Positions 2,243 to 63,843 of a DNA stretch of 64,000 nt are shown piece after piece (position 1 is the stretch's first letter; every line of letters begins with the position of its first letter). This DNA is from Patescibacteria group bacterium. Its GTDB lineage: Bacteria; Patescibacteriota; Patescibacteriia; UBA9934; GWF2-40-263. Both the position numbers and the translations under genes were made by a program. A model generated the notes under the pieces. That model was not told the origin of the DNA and did no database searches. It was given only the letters and a program-made list of their open reading frames with translations. The stretch lies in NCBI GenBank assembly GCA_041661745.1, contig JBAZTR010000003.1:91007-155006 (forward strand). The letters run 5' to 3'.

Positions 2243-2365
2243 TAGAGAGACTCGCCCCGCCTTCGGAGGCCTTCGGACGGGGTCCCGCCAAAGGCGGGAA
2301 ACTCTCAATCCTTTTGGGAACTAGCTCCTAAGGCTAGCGCGTATACCAATTCCGCCACTCCAGCG
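2243..2365 (-). pseudogene. Partial/pseudo tRNA-Leu copy with a 45-nt GC-rich insertion in the T-loop and a non-pairing acceptor stem
   Basis: Minus strand repeats the tRNA-Leu sequence TGGCGGAATTGGTATACGCGCTAGCCTTAGGAGCTAGTTCCCAAAAGGATTGAGAGTT, then the insertion TCCCGCCTTTGGCGGGACCCCGTCCGAAGGCCTCCGAAGGCGGGG, then CGAGTCTCTC. The 5' GCTGGAG has no complementary 3' strand. Confidence 0.6.
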
Positions 2366-6664: not shown

Positions 6665-6739
<75 letters not shown>

Positions 6740-6763
6740 ATTGTTTTATTTTACCACTGCGTG

Positions 6764-6806
6764 TCCGCCATAGCTCGCCTCGAGCGACGGCGGAAACTGC
6801 TGCCGC
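6764..6806 (-). repeat. tRNA-Gly upstream element: duplicate of the tRNA 5' end (GCGGCAGCAGT) followed by a TCCGCC...GGCGGA hairpin
   Basis: In tRNA orientation: GCGGCAGCAGT-TTCCGCC-GTCGCTCGAGGCGAGCTAT-GGCGGA, about 55 nt upstream of the intact tRNA-Gly. Same architecture as at the Leu, Ser and Ala loci. Confidence 0.5.
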
Positions 6807-18697: not shown

Positions 18698-18753
18698 TGA
18701 TTAAAACAAAATCCTTGATAAAAAAGACAAAAGATGATAAATTTTCCTCGCGT

Positions 18754-18853
18754 TGGAGAGGTGGCTGAGTGGTCTAATCCCGCCTGGCGTCCCGCTCTGA
18801 GAATTACAGCGGGACTTGGCGGGACCCCGCCAAAGCGAAGCGAAGGCGGGGGG
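18754..18853 (+). repeat. tRNA-Ser 5' fragment (23 nt, identical to the first 23 nt of the downstream tRNA-Ser) followed by a GC-rich double-hairpin element
   Basis: GGAGAGGTGGCTGAGTGGTCTAA, then TCCCGCC-[TGGCGTCCCGCTCTGAGAATTACAGCGGGACTT]-GGCGGGA-CCCCGCCAAAGCGAAGCGAAGGCGGGG. Same stem sequences as the insertion in the tRNA-Leu pseudo-copy. Confidence 0.6.
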
Positions 18854-18865
18854 GCGCTTGTTTCT

Positions 18866-19108
18866 ATGTTTAATACATATATTCTATTTAGTGAAAAGCA
18901 TGATCGTTATTACATCGGATCGACATCAGATATTAATACGCGCCTACAACGACACAATGCTGGAGCAACGGCATCCACTAAACCTTTTCGACCCTGGGTT
19001 CTTGTTTACGAAGAAAAATTCGAAACAAAAACCGAGGCTCGAAAGCGAGAAAATCAAATTAAGAAATATAAAGGAGGTAGAGCTTTTAAAAAGTTAGTCT
19101 CAAGGTAG
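18866..19108 (+). CDS. GIY-YIG nuclease family protein (YhbQ/UPF0213-like)
   Basis: MFNTYILFSEKHDRYYIGSTSDINTRLQRHN...VYEEKF...ARKRENQIKK matches the GIY-YIG/YhbQ fold motifs (YIL...YIG..D...R...HN...E). The track ORF starts upstream in the GC hairpins, so the first ATG after the element is used. Confidence 0.7.
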   Translation: MFNTYILFSEKHDRYYIGSTSDINTRLQRHNAGATASTKPFRPWVLVYEEKFETKTEARKRENQIKKYKGGRAFKKLVSR

Positions 19109-19111
19109 CAC

Positions 19112-19201
19112 GGAGAGGTGGCTGAGTGGTCTAAGGCGCCAGACTCGAAATCTGGTGTACTCGCAAGGGTACCGTGGGTTCAAATCCCACCCTCTCCGCC
19201 A
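19112..19201 (+). tRNA. tRNA-Ser (anticodon CGA), long variable arm, CCA encoded
   Basis: GGAGAGGTGGCTGAGTGGTCTAAGGCGCCAGACTCGAAATCTGGTGTACTCGCAAGGGTACCGTGGGTTCAAATCCCACCCTCTCCGCCA. Confidence 0.9.
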
Positions 19202-19213
19202 GAAAAAAATTCC

Positions 19214-19238
19214 AAACCGCCATCACGGCGGTTTTTTG
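19214..19238 (+). terminator. Rho-independent terminator
   Basis: aaccgcc-atcac-ggcggtt plus a T run. Confidence 0.6.
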
Positions 19239-19302
19239 TTTTTTGTACACAGAACAAACCTTCCTGTTTTTAAAATAACCGTTTATAATAACGGACACAA
19301 TT

Positions 19303-25494: not shown

Positions 25495-25559
25495 TTTAAA
25501 CAAATACCCCGGCCCGCAAACATTTCTGTTGCGAACCGGGGGTGACGCTTCCCCACCCT

Positions 25560-26300
25560 CTAGAACGAGGGGGGGACGGAGAGTTCCTGCGGCCCGGGAA
25601 GATCTCCGAAGATTCTCCGGGTGATTTCGCCGGAATCGACCAGCCAGTAGCCGGGCCGACTCTCCGTGACTTCTCGGAGGACGAAGTTGGACGACGCCCC
25701 AGGGGTGCCGATCAACCAGATCGTGCCCTCCCCCGACCAGGTGACCGGGGTGCCGGACATCTCGACCTCGGAGACGCGATCGTCTCCGTTGAAGTTGCCG
25801 ACGACCGTCCGGACCCGACCGAACCGATCGATGACCGGGACGATCCCTTCGGGCCCGGCCACGGTGTAGGTCCGGCCGCGGTCCAGCTGGATCGTGGCGC
25901 AGTGGTCGCACTGCAGCCACCGGACCAGTCCCAGGGGGTTGTAGGAAAACGCCCGGAGCGGCGGGTCCATCATCTCCGGCGCCTGGACACCGCCGACCGG
26001 GAAGGCCGGGGGCATCGGGCGGATGACAGGAACCGGCTCGGGGACGGACGCAGGCTTGGCGGCCACGGCCAACTTGGCCTCGGCCGCGTCCGCGCGCCAC
26101 TGGGCCCACGCGAGGTCGACGGTCTGGATGCAGTCCTGGTCGTCGCCGACGCAGGCCTGCTTCAGCGTCAAGTAGCAGTCGATCGGATCGACCGCTTCCT
26201 TGCACGCCCCGAGCTCGGCCGCGGTGGCGGCGAGGGCGGAGGTGGAGGCGAAGAACGCGATGATGGCCGCGGCGAGGGCGGCGAGGATGGAACGGATCAT
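25560..26300 (-). CDS. Hypothetical secreted protein (high-GC island gene)
   Basis: Signal peptide MIRSILAALAAAIIAFFASTSALA; Cys-containing mature region. Coding GC is far above the window background. Confidence 0.45.
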   Translation of the reverse strand: MIRSILAALAAAIIAFFASTSALAATAAELGACKEAVDPIDCYLTLKQACVGDDQDCIQTVDLAWAQWRADAAEAKLAVAAKPASVPEPVPVIRPMPPAFPVGGVQAPEMMDPPLRAFSYNPLGLVRWLQCDHCATIQLDRGRTYTVAGPEGIVPVIDRFGRVRTVVGNFNGDDRVSEVEMSGTPVTWSGEGTIWLIGTPGASSNFVLREVTESRPGYWLVDSGEITRRIFGDLPGPQELSVPPSF

Positions 26301-26351
26301 GGTGAATCTCCAGAAAACGGAAGGGATGGATTGGATTGGACCGGAGCCAGA

Positions 26352-26789
26352 TTACTCGCCGGACTCCAGGATGACCCGGAAGTCGGCGCGCGACCTCTCG
26401 AGTTCGACTCGCACCTTCTCGAGCTCCAGGAGGAGCTGCCGGTCGATAACGAGCGTTGCACCACGGCTGTCCATGGCCTGGGTCATGCCCGACTGCTGGA
26501 GAGAGACCCAGTCGGTGAGACGGGCTCCCGGCGTGGCGGACCACGCCTCGAACGGGAAGAGCCATCCGCACTGGCTGGGGTTCACCATGCATGCCGCCTG
26601 CGCTTCGGCCAGGGTGTACCTGGCGGAGGCGTCGATCACGACGGCCGCGCCACGGGGCGTGACCGCGCGAGCGGCCGCCTCGAGTTCGCCATTGACTCCC
26701 CGATGCACAGAGACGCACCCGTTGAGGACGAACAGTACGGCGAGAACGAGGACGGAGAGGATGGAACGCATGGATGCTCCTTGGCGCAA
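26352..26789 (-). CDS. Hypothetical lipoprotein (high-GC island gene)
   Basis: Signal peptide with lipobox LNGC (MRSILSVLVLAVLFVLNGC); 145 aa. Confidence 0.45.
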   Translation of the reverse strand: MRQGASMRSILSVLVLAVLFVLNGCVSVHRGVNGELEAAARAVTPRGAAVVIDASARYTLAEAQAACMVNPSQCGWLFPFEAWSATPGARLTDWVSLQQSGMTQAMDSRGATLVIDRQLLLELEKVRVELERSRADFRVILESGE

Positions 26790-27088
26790 TGCACCTGAAC
26801 GGATTGTGGTTGGTTGAGTTGGTTTTCAGGTTGAAAAGAACCGAAGAAGCAGCAAAATTTCCTTTGTTTAGCGGCTTTTTTGGTTCTTCTAAGCTTTCAA
26901 AAGTACTCAATAATATATCACAAAATTGGGGTTTTGTCAAGGCATGCGACTGAAGAATTTATCTAATTTAAGCTAATTTTAGTTCTCCCTCCCTCATATA
27001 ACTCTTGTTTTTTATATGGGGGAGGGATGGGGAGAGGAAAAAATAAAAGCCCCAGCCTGAGTTAACAAGCCGGGGCGAGGAGTCGGGC

Positions 27089-29497
27089 CTAGTGCCCGGA
27101 ACTCCTGAGACAGGTCGCATGGTTCACCGGATCCTGGATCCGGGAACAGTCGATCTGCTTCCGCTTCCCCGAAGGAGTCGAGGCAGCGGGCGGGTGGGAC
27201 GTGGTGGCTGTAGTGGGTGCCACCTGGGAACTGGCGGCCGCGGGCTGGCTGGGCACCGCGGTCGGGGCGGCTGGAGCCGGCTGAACGATCTGGGCCGACG
27301 TGTTCGGGTCGTCGCCGAATCCGAATTTACAGTCAACCAAGAGCGACACGCCGACGATCAGGAACACCAGCGAGCCGAACAGGACGGCCAGAATGGCCAG
27401 GTACGAACCAGCGGCTCGGAAGCCGCGTGCTGTTCCGCTCTGGCTCTCGTCCTGAGCACCGAGAACGGCCAGGAGCAAGCCACCAGCCACAGCCACAGCC
27501 GGCGACACCACCAGGATCCAGGCCCAGAACGTGTGGGAGCAACCCCACATGGAGGGGACCGGAGCCGAGGAGGCAGTCGAGGCCGACTGTCCGCCGATGA
27601 CGCTGGCCAACTCTTCGGCCTGCGCCTTCTTGGCCTTGGCCTTGTCCAGCTCCTCTGGGAACCGGTCAGGCTTCAGGTCGTACGTGAAGTGGCCGAAGCC
27701 ATCCTCACGGACGCGGACTTCCAGAGCCCCCGGGAGGTTGGCGACCAACCGCGCTTCGGAGTAGACATGGCCATTGCTGACCGTGACCATTCCGTGCTTG
27801 GTGGCCGCGACGCCGAAGACCTCCTCGAGGGAGTACTCTCCGTCGTCCGTCTGGTCGTAGGGGTTGGAGTAGACGACCACGAACTCGTTGGTCGTTCCCT
27901 GCACCACCCTGGCCTCAACGGGTTCCCAGGCCCACTCGGTTCGGGCCATGAGAGCCGCTAGCACTGCGAAGAGCGGGATTGCTCCCACCCACGTGACGGT
28001 GCGGAGGAACTTGGACTCCCAGATGTCCATCCTCCTCACTTGGGAGTAGCCGACCACAGCCGCGGTCGACAGCATCGCGGCAACGATCAGGAGAGATCGT
28101 GCCTGAATGCCGCCAGCCAGACCAACTGTGATCAAGCCAACTGCCCCGAAGAAGAGGGTGAAGAACGCCCCGGAGAACCCGAGGTTCCGAAGCCACGGCA
28201 CCGAGGTCGTGGCTGGCGTGACGTTGAAGCCCAACCGCTGTCCGACGATTCGGAACTGATCCATGAACCAGTCCACCAACCCCTGGATGGGGATGAGGAG
28301 GAGCATGGAGATGGTGAGCAACACGGTGCCGGCCATCCACTTCCAGAGCTGGCCGTGGTACCAGCCGTCCAAGAAGAACATCTCGGCCGACCAGTAGGTG
28401 AAGCGCAGGTAGCCGTAGCCCAGAAGCCCGATCACGAGGAGCAAAATCCCGAAGATTCCAGCCACGACCGCGACGACCGCCTTCCAGTTCCTTTCGGAAA
28501 TCCAGTGAGAGATCCTGTCCGTGGCCGTGTCGAGGTGCCCGGCGAGCCTGTCCTTGAGGCGCGGATTGAACACCGCGTCCACCCGGCGCACGAAGCGCTG
28601 GTAGAGGTCGTTGGTCGGCTCGACGCCCTTCGTTCCTTCATTCAGAAGGTCCTTGAGCAAGCGGATCTTGCTCCAAGCATCCTCCTCGAAGGCACGCTGG
28701 ACGAGAGCCGCAGCCAGGCCCCTCTCGGACATGGCGCGGTCGACCAGGCGCCCGAAGACCCAGCGTTCCTCCTCGGACAGGGTGTCCTCGAAGGCCTTGG
28801 GCTTGGGCGGATCGATCGACGACGAGGAGCCGGCTCCGGTCATGAGGATCTTGACCAACGAGCCACCGCAGCACGGGCAGATCCGAAGACCCGTCTGCTT
28901 AGCGATTGCCTCCCAGTCAGCCTCATCGACGCGATACTTCTGGGCCGGACGGATAACCGTCTTCTTCGGCGACTTGGGATTGCTCATATCGACCGTGGCC
29001 ACCTCGGTGTTGGCCAACTCGAAAGCAGCGGTCCGCTGCAAGAGCTCGGCACACTTGCTTGTGGTGTGAAGGCCCATGGCGGCCGGCTCGATCCAGTACT
29101 TGTCCGGAGCCAACGGCTCCTTGGCCTTGGCATCGCTGCCGGCCTTGACCTTGATCTTGTCGGTCATCTCCTTGGTGAAGTCCAACCAGGACTTGGCACC
29201 ACCGACGACGACCGACTCGAGGATCTCGGTGAGGTACGGCTCGAAGACCGCCCCGATGGGGCCGATCTTGCGGAGGGCCGCCCTGACCGGCTCCTTGAAG
29301 GCTCCGGCCGTGGCTCCGGCACCGGCGATGACGCTCCACTTGGCCGGCTCCGGCATATTTGAGATGGCCACAGCCAGATTCTCGAGAGTCGGCGACTTGG
29401 TGATGGCCGAGGCCCCGAGGTGGGCGATGATCGCCTCACCGGTCTCGGAGATGGCAGTGGAGAGAGCAGCGGAGGAAACGGAAGATGCGGTAGACAT
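27089..29497 (-). CDS. Large hypothetical polytopic membrane protein with a CPCCGG zinc-ribbon-like motif and a Pro/Ala/Thr-rich C-terminal tail (high-GC island gene)
   Basis: Start set at MSTASSVSS after a long 5' UTR that begins at an AT-rich TTGACA-17-TATAAAT promoter (minus strand, about 29640-29670). More than 8 hydrophobic helices. No family assigned. Confidence 0.5.
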   Translation of the reverse strand: MSTASSVSSAALSTAISETGEAIIAHLGASAITKSPTLENLAVAISNMPEPAKWSVIAGAGATAGAFKEPVRAALRKIGPIGAVFEPYLTEILESVVVGGAKSWLDFTKEMTDKIKVKAGSDAKAKEPLAPDKYWIEPAAMGLHTTSKCAELLQRTAAFELANTEVATVDMSNPKSPKKTVIRPAQKYRVDEADWEAIAKQTGLRICPCCGGSLVKILMTGAGSSSSIDPPKPKAFEDTLSEEERWVFGRLVDRAMSERGLAAALVQRAFEEDAWSKIRLLKDLLNEGTKGVEPTNDLYQRFVRRVDAVFNPRLKDRLAGHLDTATDRISHWISERNWKAVVAVVAGIFGILLLVIGLLGYGYLRFTYWSAEMFFLDGWYHGQLWKWMAGTVLLTISMLLLIPIQGLVDWFMDQFRIVGQRLGFNVTPATTSVPWLRNLGFSGAFFTLFFGAVGLITVGLAGGIQARSLLIVAAMLSTAAVVGYSQVRRMDIWESKFLRTVTWVGAIPLFAVLAALMARTEWAWEPVEARVVQGTTNEFVVVYSNPYDQTDDGEYSLEEVFGVAATKHGMVTVSNGHVYSEARLVANLPGALEVRVREDGFGHFTYDLKPDRFPEELDKAKAKKAQAEELASVIGGQSASTASSAPVPSMWGCSHTFWAWILVVSPAVAVAGGLLLAVLGAQDESQSGTARGFRAAGSYLAILAVLFGSLVFLIVGVSLLVDCKFGFGDDPNTSAQIVQPAPAAPTAVPSQPAAASSQVAPTTATTSHPPAASTPSGKRKQIDCSRIQDPVNHATCLRSSGH

Positions 29498-29714
29498 GGG
29501 ATTTCTTTCCGTGCGCTTTAAAGGCGCGTTTTGTTGTGAAGGGACATGGTTCCGCTCATTTTGCCAATCGTGGGGCAACCCCAACAGACGGCGAGACGGA
29601 AAATTGCCCTCTATACGGCCTTGTGGGCACGCACGGAGAACGTGTATTTATATCATATTTTTAAAGATTTGTCAACCGTGTTTCCCTCCATTTTTCGCTT
29701 AAATTAAACAAAAA

Positions 29715-63660: not shown

Positions 63661-63736
63661 TGGTGGACCGTAACGGGATCGAACCGTTGACCTCTTCCAT
63701 GCCATGGAAGCGCTCTACCAGCTGAGCTAACGGCCC
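63661..63736 (-). tRNA. tRNA-Ala (anticodon GGC) with the G3:U70 identity pair, CCA encoded
   Basis: Minus strand reads GGGCCGTTAGCTCAGCTGGTAGAGCGCTTCCATGGCATGGAAGAGGTCAACGGTTCGATCCCGTTACGGTCCACCA. Confidence 0.85.
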
Positions 63737-63744
63737 ATTTTTTT

Positions 63745-63843
63745 AGACCGTTAGCGAAGCTGTTCTTTTCAGCTGCGAGGTCGAGCTAAGCTCGACGAAG
63801 TCCGCCGAAGCCCGAGGGGCGAAGGCGGAAGCTAACGGCCCAT
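63745..63843 (-). repeat. tRNA-Ala upstream element: duplicate of the tRNA 5' end (GGGCCGTTAGCT) followed by a TCCGCC...GGCGGA hairpin and further hairpins
   Basis: In tRNA orientation: GATGGGCCGTTAGCT-TCCGCC-TTCGCCCCTCGGGCTTC-GGCGGA-CTTCGTCGAGCTTAGCTCGAC..., then about 40 nt AT-rich spacer and the intact tRNA. Confidence 0.5.

Follow-up and report, generated by a model that had tools for sequence, protein, structure and literature searches.

How does a gene for an 80-residue nuclease come to lie inside a tRNA transcription unit, between a truncated copy of a tRNA gene and the intact gene itself? This arrangement is seen at a tRNA-Ser locus in a 64-kb stretch of a Patescibacteria genome (contig JBAZTR010000003.1); the whole stretch is called the window here, and labels such as L207 denote comparison loci. 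A first reading of the sequence (hereafter the original prediction) had described the first 23 nt of tRNA-Ser as duplicated upstream of the gene and followed by a double hairpin rich in guanine and cytosine (GC), an 80-amino acid GIY-YIG open reading frame (ORF) and the complete tRNA, all of which was confirmed with small corrections. We consider it fairly probable that the Ser locus belongs to a widespread family of selfish nuclease cassettes of minimal size, which would spread or amplify by nuclease-stimulated recombination. Each cassette would consist of a ~240-bp Slx1-like GIY-YIG gene lodged in a tRNA transcription unit, with a dead copy of the tRNA on one side and the live tRNA on the other.

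A nuclease gene nested in a tRNA-Ser transcription unit

The ORF of the window sits between a dead copy of tRNA-Ser and the live gene (Table 1), and its stop codon is placed 3 nt upstream of position +1 of the live tRNA. No promoter-like site was found between the dead copy and the live tRNA-Ser, nor between the dead and live copies at the other window loci checked. Since the dead copy resumes with GGCGC on the 3' side of the GC hairpins, the hairpins are an insertion within a dead copy of tRNA positions 1-28. The DNA between the direct repeats is 334 nt long (18778-19111) and contains the hairpins and the 80-residue ORF, and nothing else.

Formally, the same sequence can be read as an interrupted tRNA gene, with 18755-18777 as the first exon, a 356-nt ORF-bearing intron and the rest as the second exon, or else as a split tRNA, and GIY-YIG genes are indeed common in group I introns, including those of tRNAs (PMC3984707). 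This reading is extremely unlikely. The downstream tRNA-Ser is complete and has a normal score (61.7 bits), models of group I and group II introns gave no match even at an E-value of 1, the ~110 nt of non-ORF sequence are too short for a group I intron, and the ORF lies outside any intron-like fold. The intact downstream tRNA and the missing match to an intron model led us to reject both a group I intron and a split tRNA.

In public gene calls the nuclease appears as a 124-residue protein starting from the ATG at 18734 (18734-19108 of the window; 1932-2306 of L208). This call is an over-extension of the 80-residue gene, its first 44 codons being translated promoter region, dead tRNA (GEVAEWSN) and hairpins (GGTPP). 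Because the public calls use the 124-residue form, the exact 80-residue product has no database record by exact-sequence look-up. N-terminal extensions are present in ~70 of the 150 best family representatives. At least 23 of these ~70 contain translated-tRNA-like peptides (AEW, GSNP, FESH, AQLV) and 9 contain the hairpin-type peptide GG[VTA]PP, so that the extensions look like a family-wide annotation artefact.

The 80-residue protein has an Slx1-like fold

The protein scores 65.1 bits with the Pfam GIY-YIG family (PF01541), for which the cut-off is 22.6 (E 7e-18), and all 23 aligned sequences agree at Y16, G18, R26, H30 and E62, which represent the GIY, YIG, Arg, His and Glu positions. The YhbQ-like identity that had been assigned from the sequence was upheld by profile and structure searches, in which the UPF0213 structures 1zg2 and 1ywl came out on top: a profile of the 23 homologues finds them with E-values of 2-3e-12, compared with 1e-6 to 2e-5 for SLX1 and 4e-3 for I-TevI, and Foldseek orders the structural matches as UPF0213, Slx1, I-TevI and UvrC. 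The AlphaFold model (predicted local distance difference test score 94) has a beta-beta-alpha-beta-alpha fold, which superposes on the Slx1 nuclease domain with a query TM-score of 0.68-0.71 and a root mean square deviation of 2.1-2.4 Å, the TM-score for I-TevI being 0.57. The protein is a member of the UPF0213/YhbQ (prokaryotic Slx1-like) clade, and is closest to the structure-specific nuclease Slx1. It represents the bare catalytic domain, with no DNA-binding or accessory domain.

The family is very large and forms 24,312 clusters when grouped at 50% identity (E up to 1e-3). A survey of the superfamily from 2006 described the clade as a minimal GIY-YIG domain without accessory domain, filed it as vertically inherited prokaryotic Slx1-like repair proteins and noted the fusion of one member to the tRNA methyltransferase TrmH, but a link of the clade to tRNA genes is not mentioned there (PMC1564403). 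The group I intron endonuclease model TIGR01453 fails on the 80-residue protein (17.1 bits against a cut-off of 56). PHROG families gave no match to it, PADLOC defence models gave partial matches alone (17-20 bits over 26-37 residues of profiles with 277-320 positions), and 50,697 phage records contained 16 weak partial matches to the nuclease and no more. Phage origin or membership in a defence system is thus unsupported by these three sources.

The unit recurs across phyla

A nuclease gene, a duplicated tRNA and GC hairpins form a three-way association with a characteristic orientation and geometry, which occurs in arrays and occupies varied tRNAs. The association was followed in 80 loci encoding relatives of the protein, taken from one genome per species and covering Patescibacteria, Bacteroidota, Omnitrophota, Chloroflexota, Acidobacteria, Ignavibacteria, Planctomycetes, Margulisbacteria and other groups. 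A tRNA gene lies on the same strand within 150 nt of the ORF in 64 of the 80 loci (47 downstream, 23 upstream, 6 on both sides), and the tRNAs within this distance amount to 71 on the same strand and none on the opposite one. Judged from the tRNA density of the flanks, the chance of a tRNA neighbour is 0.0067 per locus (P ~1e-123). At least 14 tRNA isotypes are involved.

Partial duplicates of the tRNA are present in ~60% of the loci. Where the live tRNA lies downstream, a copy of its positions 1..x is located 35-90 nt upstream of the ORF (~30 loci), with alignment scores of 44-70, compared with ~20 for the best shuffle. With the live tRNA upstream instead, the ORF is followed by a duplicate of the tRNA's 3' part, which makes a mirror-image class, and complete tRNA copies occur on both sides of the ORF at five loci. 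The spacing is constrained as well: the dead copy reaches as far as tRNA positions 27-41 and has the ATG 2-16 nt behind it, and the codon of the conserved Lys66 is 32-51 nt away from tRNA +1 in 31 of the 47 loci (48 nt in the window). Often the ORF overlaps the tRNA, where the conserved T8-A9-G10 or a TAG at positions 20-22 serves as its stop. Furthermore, in 11 of the 80 loci two to four genes follow one another head to tail at a period of 330-540 nt, with dead tRNA between them, and one such array is carried by the cultured Salegentibacter tibetensis JZCK2 (L015). Other cultured carriers are Indibacter alkaliphilus LW1 (L036) and Pedobacter sp. CFBP9032 (L058).

The proposal that nuclease gene, tRNA and partial duplicate make up a recurrent unit is borne out by these loci in many phyla. 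Insertion had been suggested for the 5' side of tRNA genes, and the mirror-image class (live tRNA, ORF, dead 3' copy) had not been foreseen. The alternative offered at the time was a lineage-specific structured leader; in its purely lineage-specific form it is ruled out, because the unit recurs across phyla, at tRNAs that differ even among close homologues, and because a conserved Thr-Tyr-Thr cluster has both occupied and empty positions.

Two further kinds of relic were observed. In L204 (2030-2185), ~100 nt rich in GC lead up to a second relic, a duplicate of the final 20 nt of tRNA-Ser(tga) (GAATCCCTCCCTCTCCGCCA), which lies 3' of the live gene and of its terminator. Dead fragments can therefore flank one live gene on both sides. 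Tandem dead units occur in L020 (2944-3472), with three copies of an 82-nt dead tRNA-Met unit in which the anticodon arm is replaced by TCCCGAttaaaaTCGGGA, and in L036 (3243-3350), with three copies of the 28-nt unit TCCGCCCGGATGACA...GACGGG within a dead tRNA-Arg.

GC hairpins are inserted in the dead copies

In 24 of 34 loci that have their tRNA downstream, the ORF is separated from the 5' fragment by a perfect hairpin or pair of hairpins of 15-75 nt, but for which the dead copy would be continuous. The insertion follows position 22/23 (13 loci), 30 (3), 12-15 (5) or 32-36 (5), and other dead copies have the hairpin at 55/56, in the T loop. Where the dead copy lies downstream of the ORF, whole arms have been exchanged; for example, TCCCGA/TCGGGA stands in for the anticodon stem, with the loop kept, and CCCCGCC-N3-GGCGGGG for the D arm. 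Hairpins are also nested within one another's loops (window Ser, L002, L044). In metagenome tRNA-Ser loci the hairpin block is located at 14/15, at 16/17 and 35/36, at 23/24, or at 35/36, while the place of the ORF is constant, which indicates that the hairpins are independent and repeated insertions. They are not the ends of the nuclease element but insertions within the dead tRNA copy, with a position that differs among related loci.

The hairpins are nevertheless linked to the nuclease gene. A perfect GC hairpin lies within 130 nt of the ORF in 55 of the 80 loci, as opposed to 24 of 320 control windows, and the stems near the ORF are overwhelmingly CCCGCC, CCTGCC, TCCCGC or TCCGCC, regardless of phylum. 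In 666 kb of loci selected for the hairpin, all 19 GIY-YIG genes lie within 200 nt of one. Metagenome contigs contained 132 matches to the double hairpin, with a tRNA within 150 nt in 26 cases (~4% expected) and ~10 more at a distance of one ORF-length; in contigs below 50% GC, 20 of 56 matches are near a tRNA. The flank is duplicated within the nearby tRNA for 23 of the double-hairpin matches, compared with 7 of 396 controls. Of the original idea that the hairpin is tied to tRNA loci the enrichment therefore stands, but not the exclusivity, and since most metagenome double hairpins have neither neighbour, the link between hairpin and nuclease is statistical and not obligate. When the double hairpin was removed from 108 of the metagenome matches and ARAGORN was rerun, one tRNA was restored, so that most interrupted copies are truncated or degenerate and not recently disrupted genes.

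Flanking repeats of at least 9 nt accompany 14% of the hairpin matches and 3% of the controls; they vary in length and are mostly found in tRNA contexts, so that a fixed target-site duplication is as yet unsupported. Inverted repeats of at least 10 nt around the ORF were found in 3 of 77 testable loci and are convincing in L047 and L022 only, and with such repeats being rare a classical transposon with terminal inverted repeats was rejected as a general model. Both exceptions are tRNA-Ala loci of Patescibacteria (L022 888-1215, L047 2944-3289), in which the ORF occupies the loop of a long inverted repeat (TCCCGAtt...ttctaggaa, with a complement ending in TCG(a)GGA); they are the sole transposon-like cases.

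In contigs of 58-67% GC, a dispersed subfamily of the form TCCCGCC-N3-GGCGGGA-CCCCGCC-ctctttgatgagagagaagt-GGCGGGG is present (L091, L096, L104, L132, L133, L153-L158, L163-L165, L170, L183, L194, L195, L201). Its second loop contains a CTGATGAG-like string, it is often located 3' of another terminator-like hairpin and is sometimes tandem. No nuclease gene lies near these copies, and a tRNA link is seen at L091, L194 and L195 only.

The strongest rival of the cassette explanation holds that the three parts are independent of each other, with host hairpins similar to repetitive extragenic palindromic (REP) sequences or miniature inverted-repeat transposable elements occupying dispensable DNA, of which compact genomes have little besides dead tRNA copies, tRNA genes duplicating and decaying in the ordinary manner, and the nuclease gene borrowing the strong tRNA promoters without giving rise to the duplicates or moving the hairpins. 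It would account for the many double hairpins far from tRNA and nuclease genes, for a high-GC subfamily that is essentially without tRNA link, for the modest enrichment of direct repeats at the hairpins, for the absence of the hairpin from some ORF loci (L003 and the compact part of L207) and for its variable position within the dead copy. We consider it unlikely, however, as stems of the TCCCGCC, TCCCGA and CCCCGCC types accompany the protein in Patescibacteria, Margulisbacteria, Omnitrophota, Chloroflexota and Bacteroidota, whereas host-specific repeats should differ between phyla. The proximity of all 19 nuclease genes in the hairpin-selected loci to a hairpin is likewise at odds with independence, and the borrowing of promoters leaves the two-sided geometry, the frequent duplicates and the arrays unexplained.

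The conservation of the stem motif with the protein family across phyla would also suit a toxin-decoy pair, in which the nuclease is a toxin acting on a tRNA or tRNA gene and the co-transcribed dead tRNA with its hairpin is a decoy or antitoxin of a type III-like kind, the locus being kept by addiction and not by active mobility. Dead tRNA and hairpin are indeed placed directly 5' of the ORF, or 3' of it in the same transcript, and dead-tRNA units occur in tandem in L020 and L036. Even so, such a pair is very unlikely: many copies of the ORF have neither hairpin nor dead copy in their transcript (L003, L042), ORF-less hairpin copies are in the majority, and PADLOC returned weak partial matches alone. 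To our knowledge, there is no GIY-YIG ribonuclease.

The other tRNA loci of the window

Six intact tRNA genes are present in the window (ARAGORN, Rfam). Four of them share the architecture, and not four of seven as initially counted, because the supposed seventh tRNA is a dead copy of tRNA-Leu. The related hairpins and 5'-end duplicates that had been reported upstream of the Leu, Gly and Ala tRNAs were all found again, each of them inside a dead copy (Table 1). These three loci are ORF-less versions consisting of dead copy and hairpin, which may be derivatives with a deleted ORF or may never have contained one, and the remaining two of the six tRNAs have no dead-copy leader at all. Across the 64 kb, TCCGCC..GGCGGA occurs twice (0.11 expected) and TCCCGCC..GGCGGGA twice (0.04 expected), all four matches being in dead tRNA copies upstream of live tRNA genes; no further hairpin of the same stem type and no second GIY-YIG gene is present in the window.

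Table 1. Positions of the features at the tRNA-Ser, -Leu, -Gly and -Ala loci, numbered from the first nucleotide of the window
Feature	Position	Strand	Remark
Promoter-like site TTGATA-17-TAAATT, TG-extended	18715..18743	+	5' of dead tRNA-Ser copy
Dead 5' copy of tRNA-Ser, positions 1-23, GGAGAGGTGGCTGAGTGGTCTAA	18755..18777	+	23/23 bases identical to 19112-19134
GC hairpin 1, TCCCGCC...GGCGGGA	18778..18824	+	
Nested hairpin GTCCCGC...GCGGGAC	18789-18815	+	In loop of hairpin 1, same type
GC hairpin 2, CCCCGCC-N13-GGCGGGG	18825..18851	+	
Continuation of dead copy, GGCGC	18853..18857	+	tRNA positions 24-28
GIY-YIG nuclease gene, 80 amino acids	18866..19108	+	Stand-alone, UPF0213/YhbQ, Slx1-like clade
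Intact tRNA-Ser(cga), CCA encoded	19112..19201	+	ARAGORN, Rfam; 61.7 bits
Intrinsic terminator-like hairpin with T run	19214..19240	+	End of transcription unit
Dead tRNA-Leu(tag) copy, positions 7-65	2245..2358	-	Live gene at 2135-2220
45-nt double hairpin in T loop of dead tRNA-Leu	2299-2255	-	Between T55 and C56
Dead 5' tRNA-Gly copy: positions 1-12, hairpin, positions 13-23	6749..6806	-	5' of live tRNA-Gly 6665-6739
Gly hairpin TCCGCC..GGCGGA	6794-6764	-	
Promoter-like site	6851-6823	-	5' of dead Gly copy
Dead tRNA-Ala shell	63745..63841	-	5' of live tRNA-Ala 63661-63736
Ala hairpin TCCGCC..GGCGGA	63829-63801	-	
Promoter-like site	63885-63857	-	5' of Ala shell

The dead copies differ in how much of the tRNA they retain. 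At the Gly locus, 6806-6795 correspond to tRNA positions 1-12 with 11 of 12 bases, and at the Ala locus 63841-63830 match positions 1-12 with 12 of 12 bases and pair with 63755-63745, forming a 12-bp closing stem around three hairpins that resembles a cloverleaf. In the dead tRNA-Leu, positions 7-65 are identical to the live tRNA-Leu(tag), whereas both acceptor ends differ; its 5' end, GCTGGAG, resembles genes of the tRNA-Leu(caa) type on other contigs (L172, L093). The same pattern of an identical interior with different ends is seen in L113. The pattern at the two loci suggests ongoing gene conversion between neighbouring copies, which would halt before the edges of the homology.

Promoter-like sites lie 5' of the dead copies at three of the four window loci (Ser, Gly and Ala), so that the dead copies are probably transcribed as leaders. 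Such a leader could benefit the host if dead copy and hairpins acted as a tRNA-like decoy controlling how the precursor matures or how stable it is, with the GIY-YIG protein as an accessory factor that processes RNA or DNA for the tRNA concerned. The cloverleaf-like Ala shell and the Gly leader have fold z-scores of -5.8 and -3.9, some dead copies exchange the anticodon stem for TCCCGA/TCGGGA and keep its loop, and a fusion to TrmH is on record for the clade (PMC1564403), all of which would agree with this explanation. The Ser and Leu leaders, with z-scores of -2.6 and -0.75, are not unusually stable, however, and no Rfam family matches the leader. Since the isotype varies freely (at least 14), even among close homologues, two of the six window tRNAs and the compact clusters of relatives manage without a leader, some dead copies are far more truncated and eroded than others, and tandem arrays and a mirror-image class exist, a host-beneficial leader is quite unlikely.

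Apart from the tRNA loci, the window contains a segment of ~4 kb (25500-29500) with 61-68% GC, compared with a window mean of 45%, which has long overlapping ORFs on both strands (573 and 831 amino acids on the minus strand) and may be a foreign or mis-assembled island.

Signs of mobility of the cassette and a possible mechanism

Close homologues of the nuclease reside at different tRNAs. Proteins 58-77% identical to that of the window are found at Ser(tga), Thr(ggt) and Tyr(gta), the window's own being at Ser(cga). Occupied and empty positions can be compared across genomes in a conserved Thr(ggt)-Tyr-Thr(tgt) cluster, in which the spacers are 3 and 4 nt in L207. The Thr-Tyr spacer holds an ORF in L003 and L004, an ORF precedes Thr(ggt) in L001, L002, L205 and L207, and a second ORF precedes Thr(tgt) in L205. 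Within clusters of proteins with at least 60% identity, the amino-acid type of the tRNA is kept in 38 of 48 pairs and the anticodon is the same in 16 of 48; one cluster covers four Arg anticodons as well as Ala and Ser. A kept amino acid with a switched anticodon would fit a spread guided by tRNA homology.

These patterns can be combined into a mechanism. The ORF would have no promoter of its own and would be expressed by read-through from the tRNA promoter, after which cleavage by RNase P at tRNA +1 would separate it from the tRNA. The nuclease would then cut tRNA-gene DNA by its structure, at stem-loops extruded in heavily transcribed, palindrome-rich genes; recognition of structure is likely because the protein has no DNA-binding domain and is Slx1-like. 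Repair of the break via tRNA homology would either copy the cassette to similar tRNA genes or duplicate the ORF with a part of the tRNA, and subsequently one tRNA copy would stay intact while the other decays. Phage T6 offers an experimental precedent, SegB acting in this way on tRNA-Tyr. The TCCCGCC-type hairpins are a second, non-autonomous repeat that inserts repeatedly, in loops of the dead copy or at their edges and in the loops of other hairpins. Since one stem motif goes with the protein family in many phyla, the GC hairpin is probably also a structure recognised by the nuclease.

Several observations weigh against a mobile cassette of this kind. A nuclease that cuts tRNA genes should cut the live tRNA beside its own gene as well, and the model gives no reason for the escape of this copy. 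Neither simple homing nor tandem amplification predicts a duplicate that, as in the window, begins precisely at tRNA +1 and immediately follows the promoter. No recognisable tRNA was seen at 16 of the 80 loci, ~100 of the 132 double-hairpin copies have neither a tRNA nor a nuclease gene nearby, and the dead tRNA-Ser copies in several loci are 60-90% identical to the live tRNA (L111, L139, L192), which suggests that these copies are old or of foreign (or paralogue) origin. Moreover, an empty-site allele of the window Ser locus was not found, either in the same population or in relatives located via the neighbouring CN-hydrolase gene: the only other full contig of the population is 100% identical over 661 nt, and the nearest relatives have 62-65% protein identity and have lost synteny with tRNA-Ser(cga). 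Mobility is inferred from comparative patterns. Two independent Logan assemblies of the population (L209 1-30, L210 1-30) break off within the T arm of tRNA-Ser(cga), at a point 130 nt upstream of the CN-hydrolase gene, which may reflect an assembly break at a repeat or heterogeneity at the locus.

The Ser locus of the window resembles an insertion that has given the gene a direct repeat of 28 nt. Because amplification alone fails to account for the start at +1, a different route may be needed, which could be a pair of breaks staggered widely, one at +1 and one in the anticodon arm, or the single-crossover integration of an excised circle made up of the 5' fragment, the hairpins and the ORF.

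A more far-reaching version of the cassette explanation can be offered tentatively, although we find it doubtful. According to this version, the UPF0213/YhbQ clade would largely consist of the smallest known autonomous selfish elements, which are guided by hairpins, nested in tRNA genes and distributed across most bacterial phyla. The structure-specific 80-residue nuclease would recognise extruded stem-loops, namely tRNA-gene arms as well as its cognate TCCCGCC-type hairpins, and insert both itself and ORF-less hairpin partners, the host gene surviving thanks to an inherent duplication of the tRNA's first 30-40 nt.

Implications

That a free-standing GIY-YIG endonuclease gene can be tied to tRNA genes is known already from the phage enzyme SegB, with which the cassette is compared below. 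For the link of the present clade to tRNA genes, its chromosomal spread over many phyla, the nesting in a single transcription unit, the dead copy and the hairpins, no description was found in the literature, which was covered incompletely and with few subscription journals. If the cassette explanation is true, a family of 24,312 clusters, so far presumed to act in repair, would have to be seen as selfish and resident in tRNA genes, and the principle of SegB would extend beyond phages to the chromosomes of many phyla, where a much smaller enzyme of another branch would apply it. The cassette would account for oddities in annotation, such as dead tRNA fragments, GC hairpins in place of tRNA arms and nuclease calls with tRNA-derived N-termini. 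It also suggests where tRNA gene duplications and exchanges between isoacceptor genes may come from. A nuclease of 80 residues that is predicted to recognise structure, together with a defined hairpin, could possibly serve as a tool. For a direct test of the hypothesis, Flavobacteriia with arrays are available in culture.

Comparison with known systems

Short GC palindromes that are often paired, lie between genes and are statistically linked to one small nuclease gene are also a feature of the REP/REPIN-RAYT and IS200/IS605 systems, in which ORF-less copies likewise outnumber those with an ORF. The enzyme of these systems is a Y1 (HUH) transposase, however, whereas that of the cassette is a GIY-YIG protein with hairpins that do not flank the ORF. 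Furthermore, the cassette hairpins differ from those of these systems by loops of 3-33 nt on fixed stems and by a preference for dead tRNA copies. The sole gene linked to the hairpins is the GIY-YIG gene and no Y1 (HUH) transposase gene is linked to them, although the rest of the source genome was not screened for such a transposase.

With the tRNA islands of tyrosine integrases the cassette shares the location in a tRNA gene, the tRNA-derived direct repeats and the regeneration of the tRNA. Unlike these islands, it has no integrase (neither a tyrosine nor a serine recombinase gene is present within the 334-nt Ser element), measures ~0.3 kb instead of several kb, repeats the 5' and not the 3' part of the tRNA, and has relatives at different tRNAs.

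In the mitochondrial atp6 gene of Allomyces and in fungal mitochondrial ORFs, endonuclease genes are said to have invaded a host gene together with a replacement piece. These reported cases resemble the cassette in that an ORF lies in an essential gene, a duplicated part restores function and the displaced pseudo-fragment stays behind. They concern protein-coding targets, larger endonucleases and organelles, whereas the cassette has a tRNA target, a duplicate that is usually identical, and GC hairpins.

Among GIY-YIG enzymes, the cassette protein belongs to the family formed by UPF0213/YhbQ/COG2827 (1zg2, 1ywl) and Slx1. The activity of Slx1 requires Slx4, but no corresponding partner is evident for the cassette nuclease. 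Homing endonucleases of the Seg and I-TevI types combine the GIY-YIG domain with a C-terminal NUMOD or helix-turn-helix domain, whereas the cassette protein has no C-terminal domain.

The closest parallel in behaviour is offered by SegB, a GIY-YIG endonuclease of the tRNA cluster of phages T4 and T6, which cuts within tRNA-gene DNA (PMC2330249; PMC13096335) and co-localises with tRNAs of many isotypes in phages (PMC13096335; PMC2330249). SegB is a phage protein of ~220 amino acids from the homing-endonuclease/UvrC branch and has a DNA-binding domain, in contrast to the 80-residue cassette protein of the Slx1/UPF0213 branch, which is chromosomal and found in many phyla, and SegB loci have not been described with dead partial tRNAs, GC hairpins or an ORF stop inside a tRNA. 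As in the cassette, however, the GIY-YIG gene of SegB is placed among tRNA genes of many isotypes. SegB drives the tandem amplification of a 718-bp unit of tRNA-Tyr and segB, which depends on UvsX and UvsY and has its junction at a microhomology that the tRNA's 5' end shares with segB's 3' end (PMC13096335). The arrays in L013, L015, L019, L063 and L078 look like fixed products of such SegB-like amplification.

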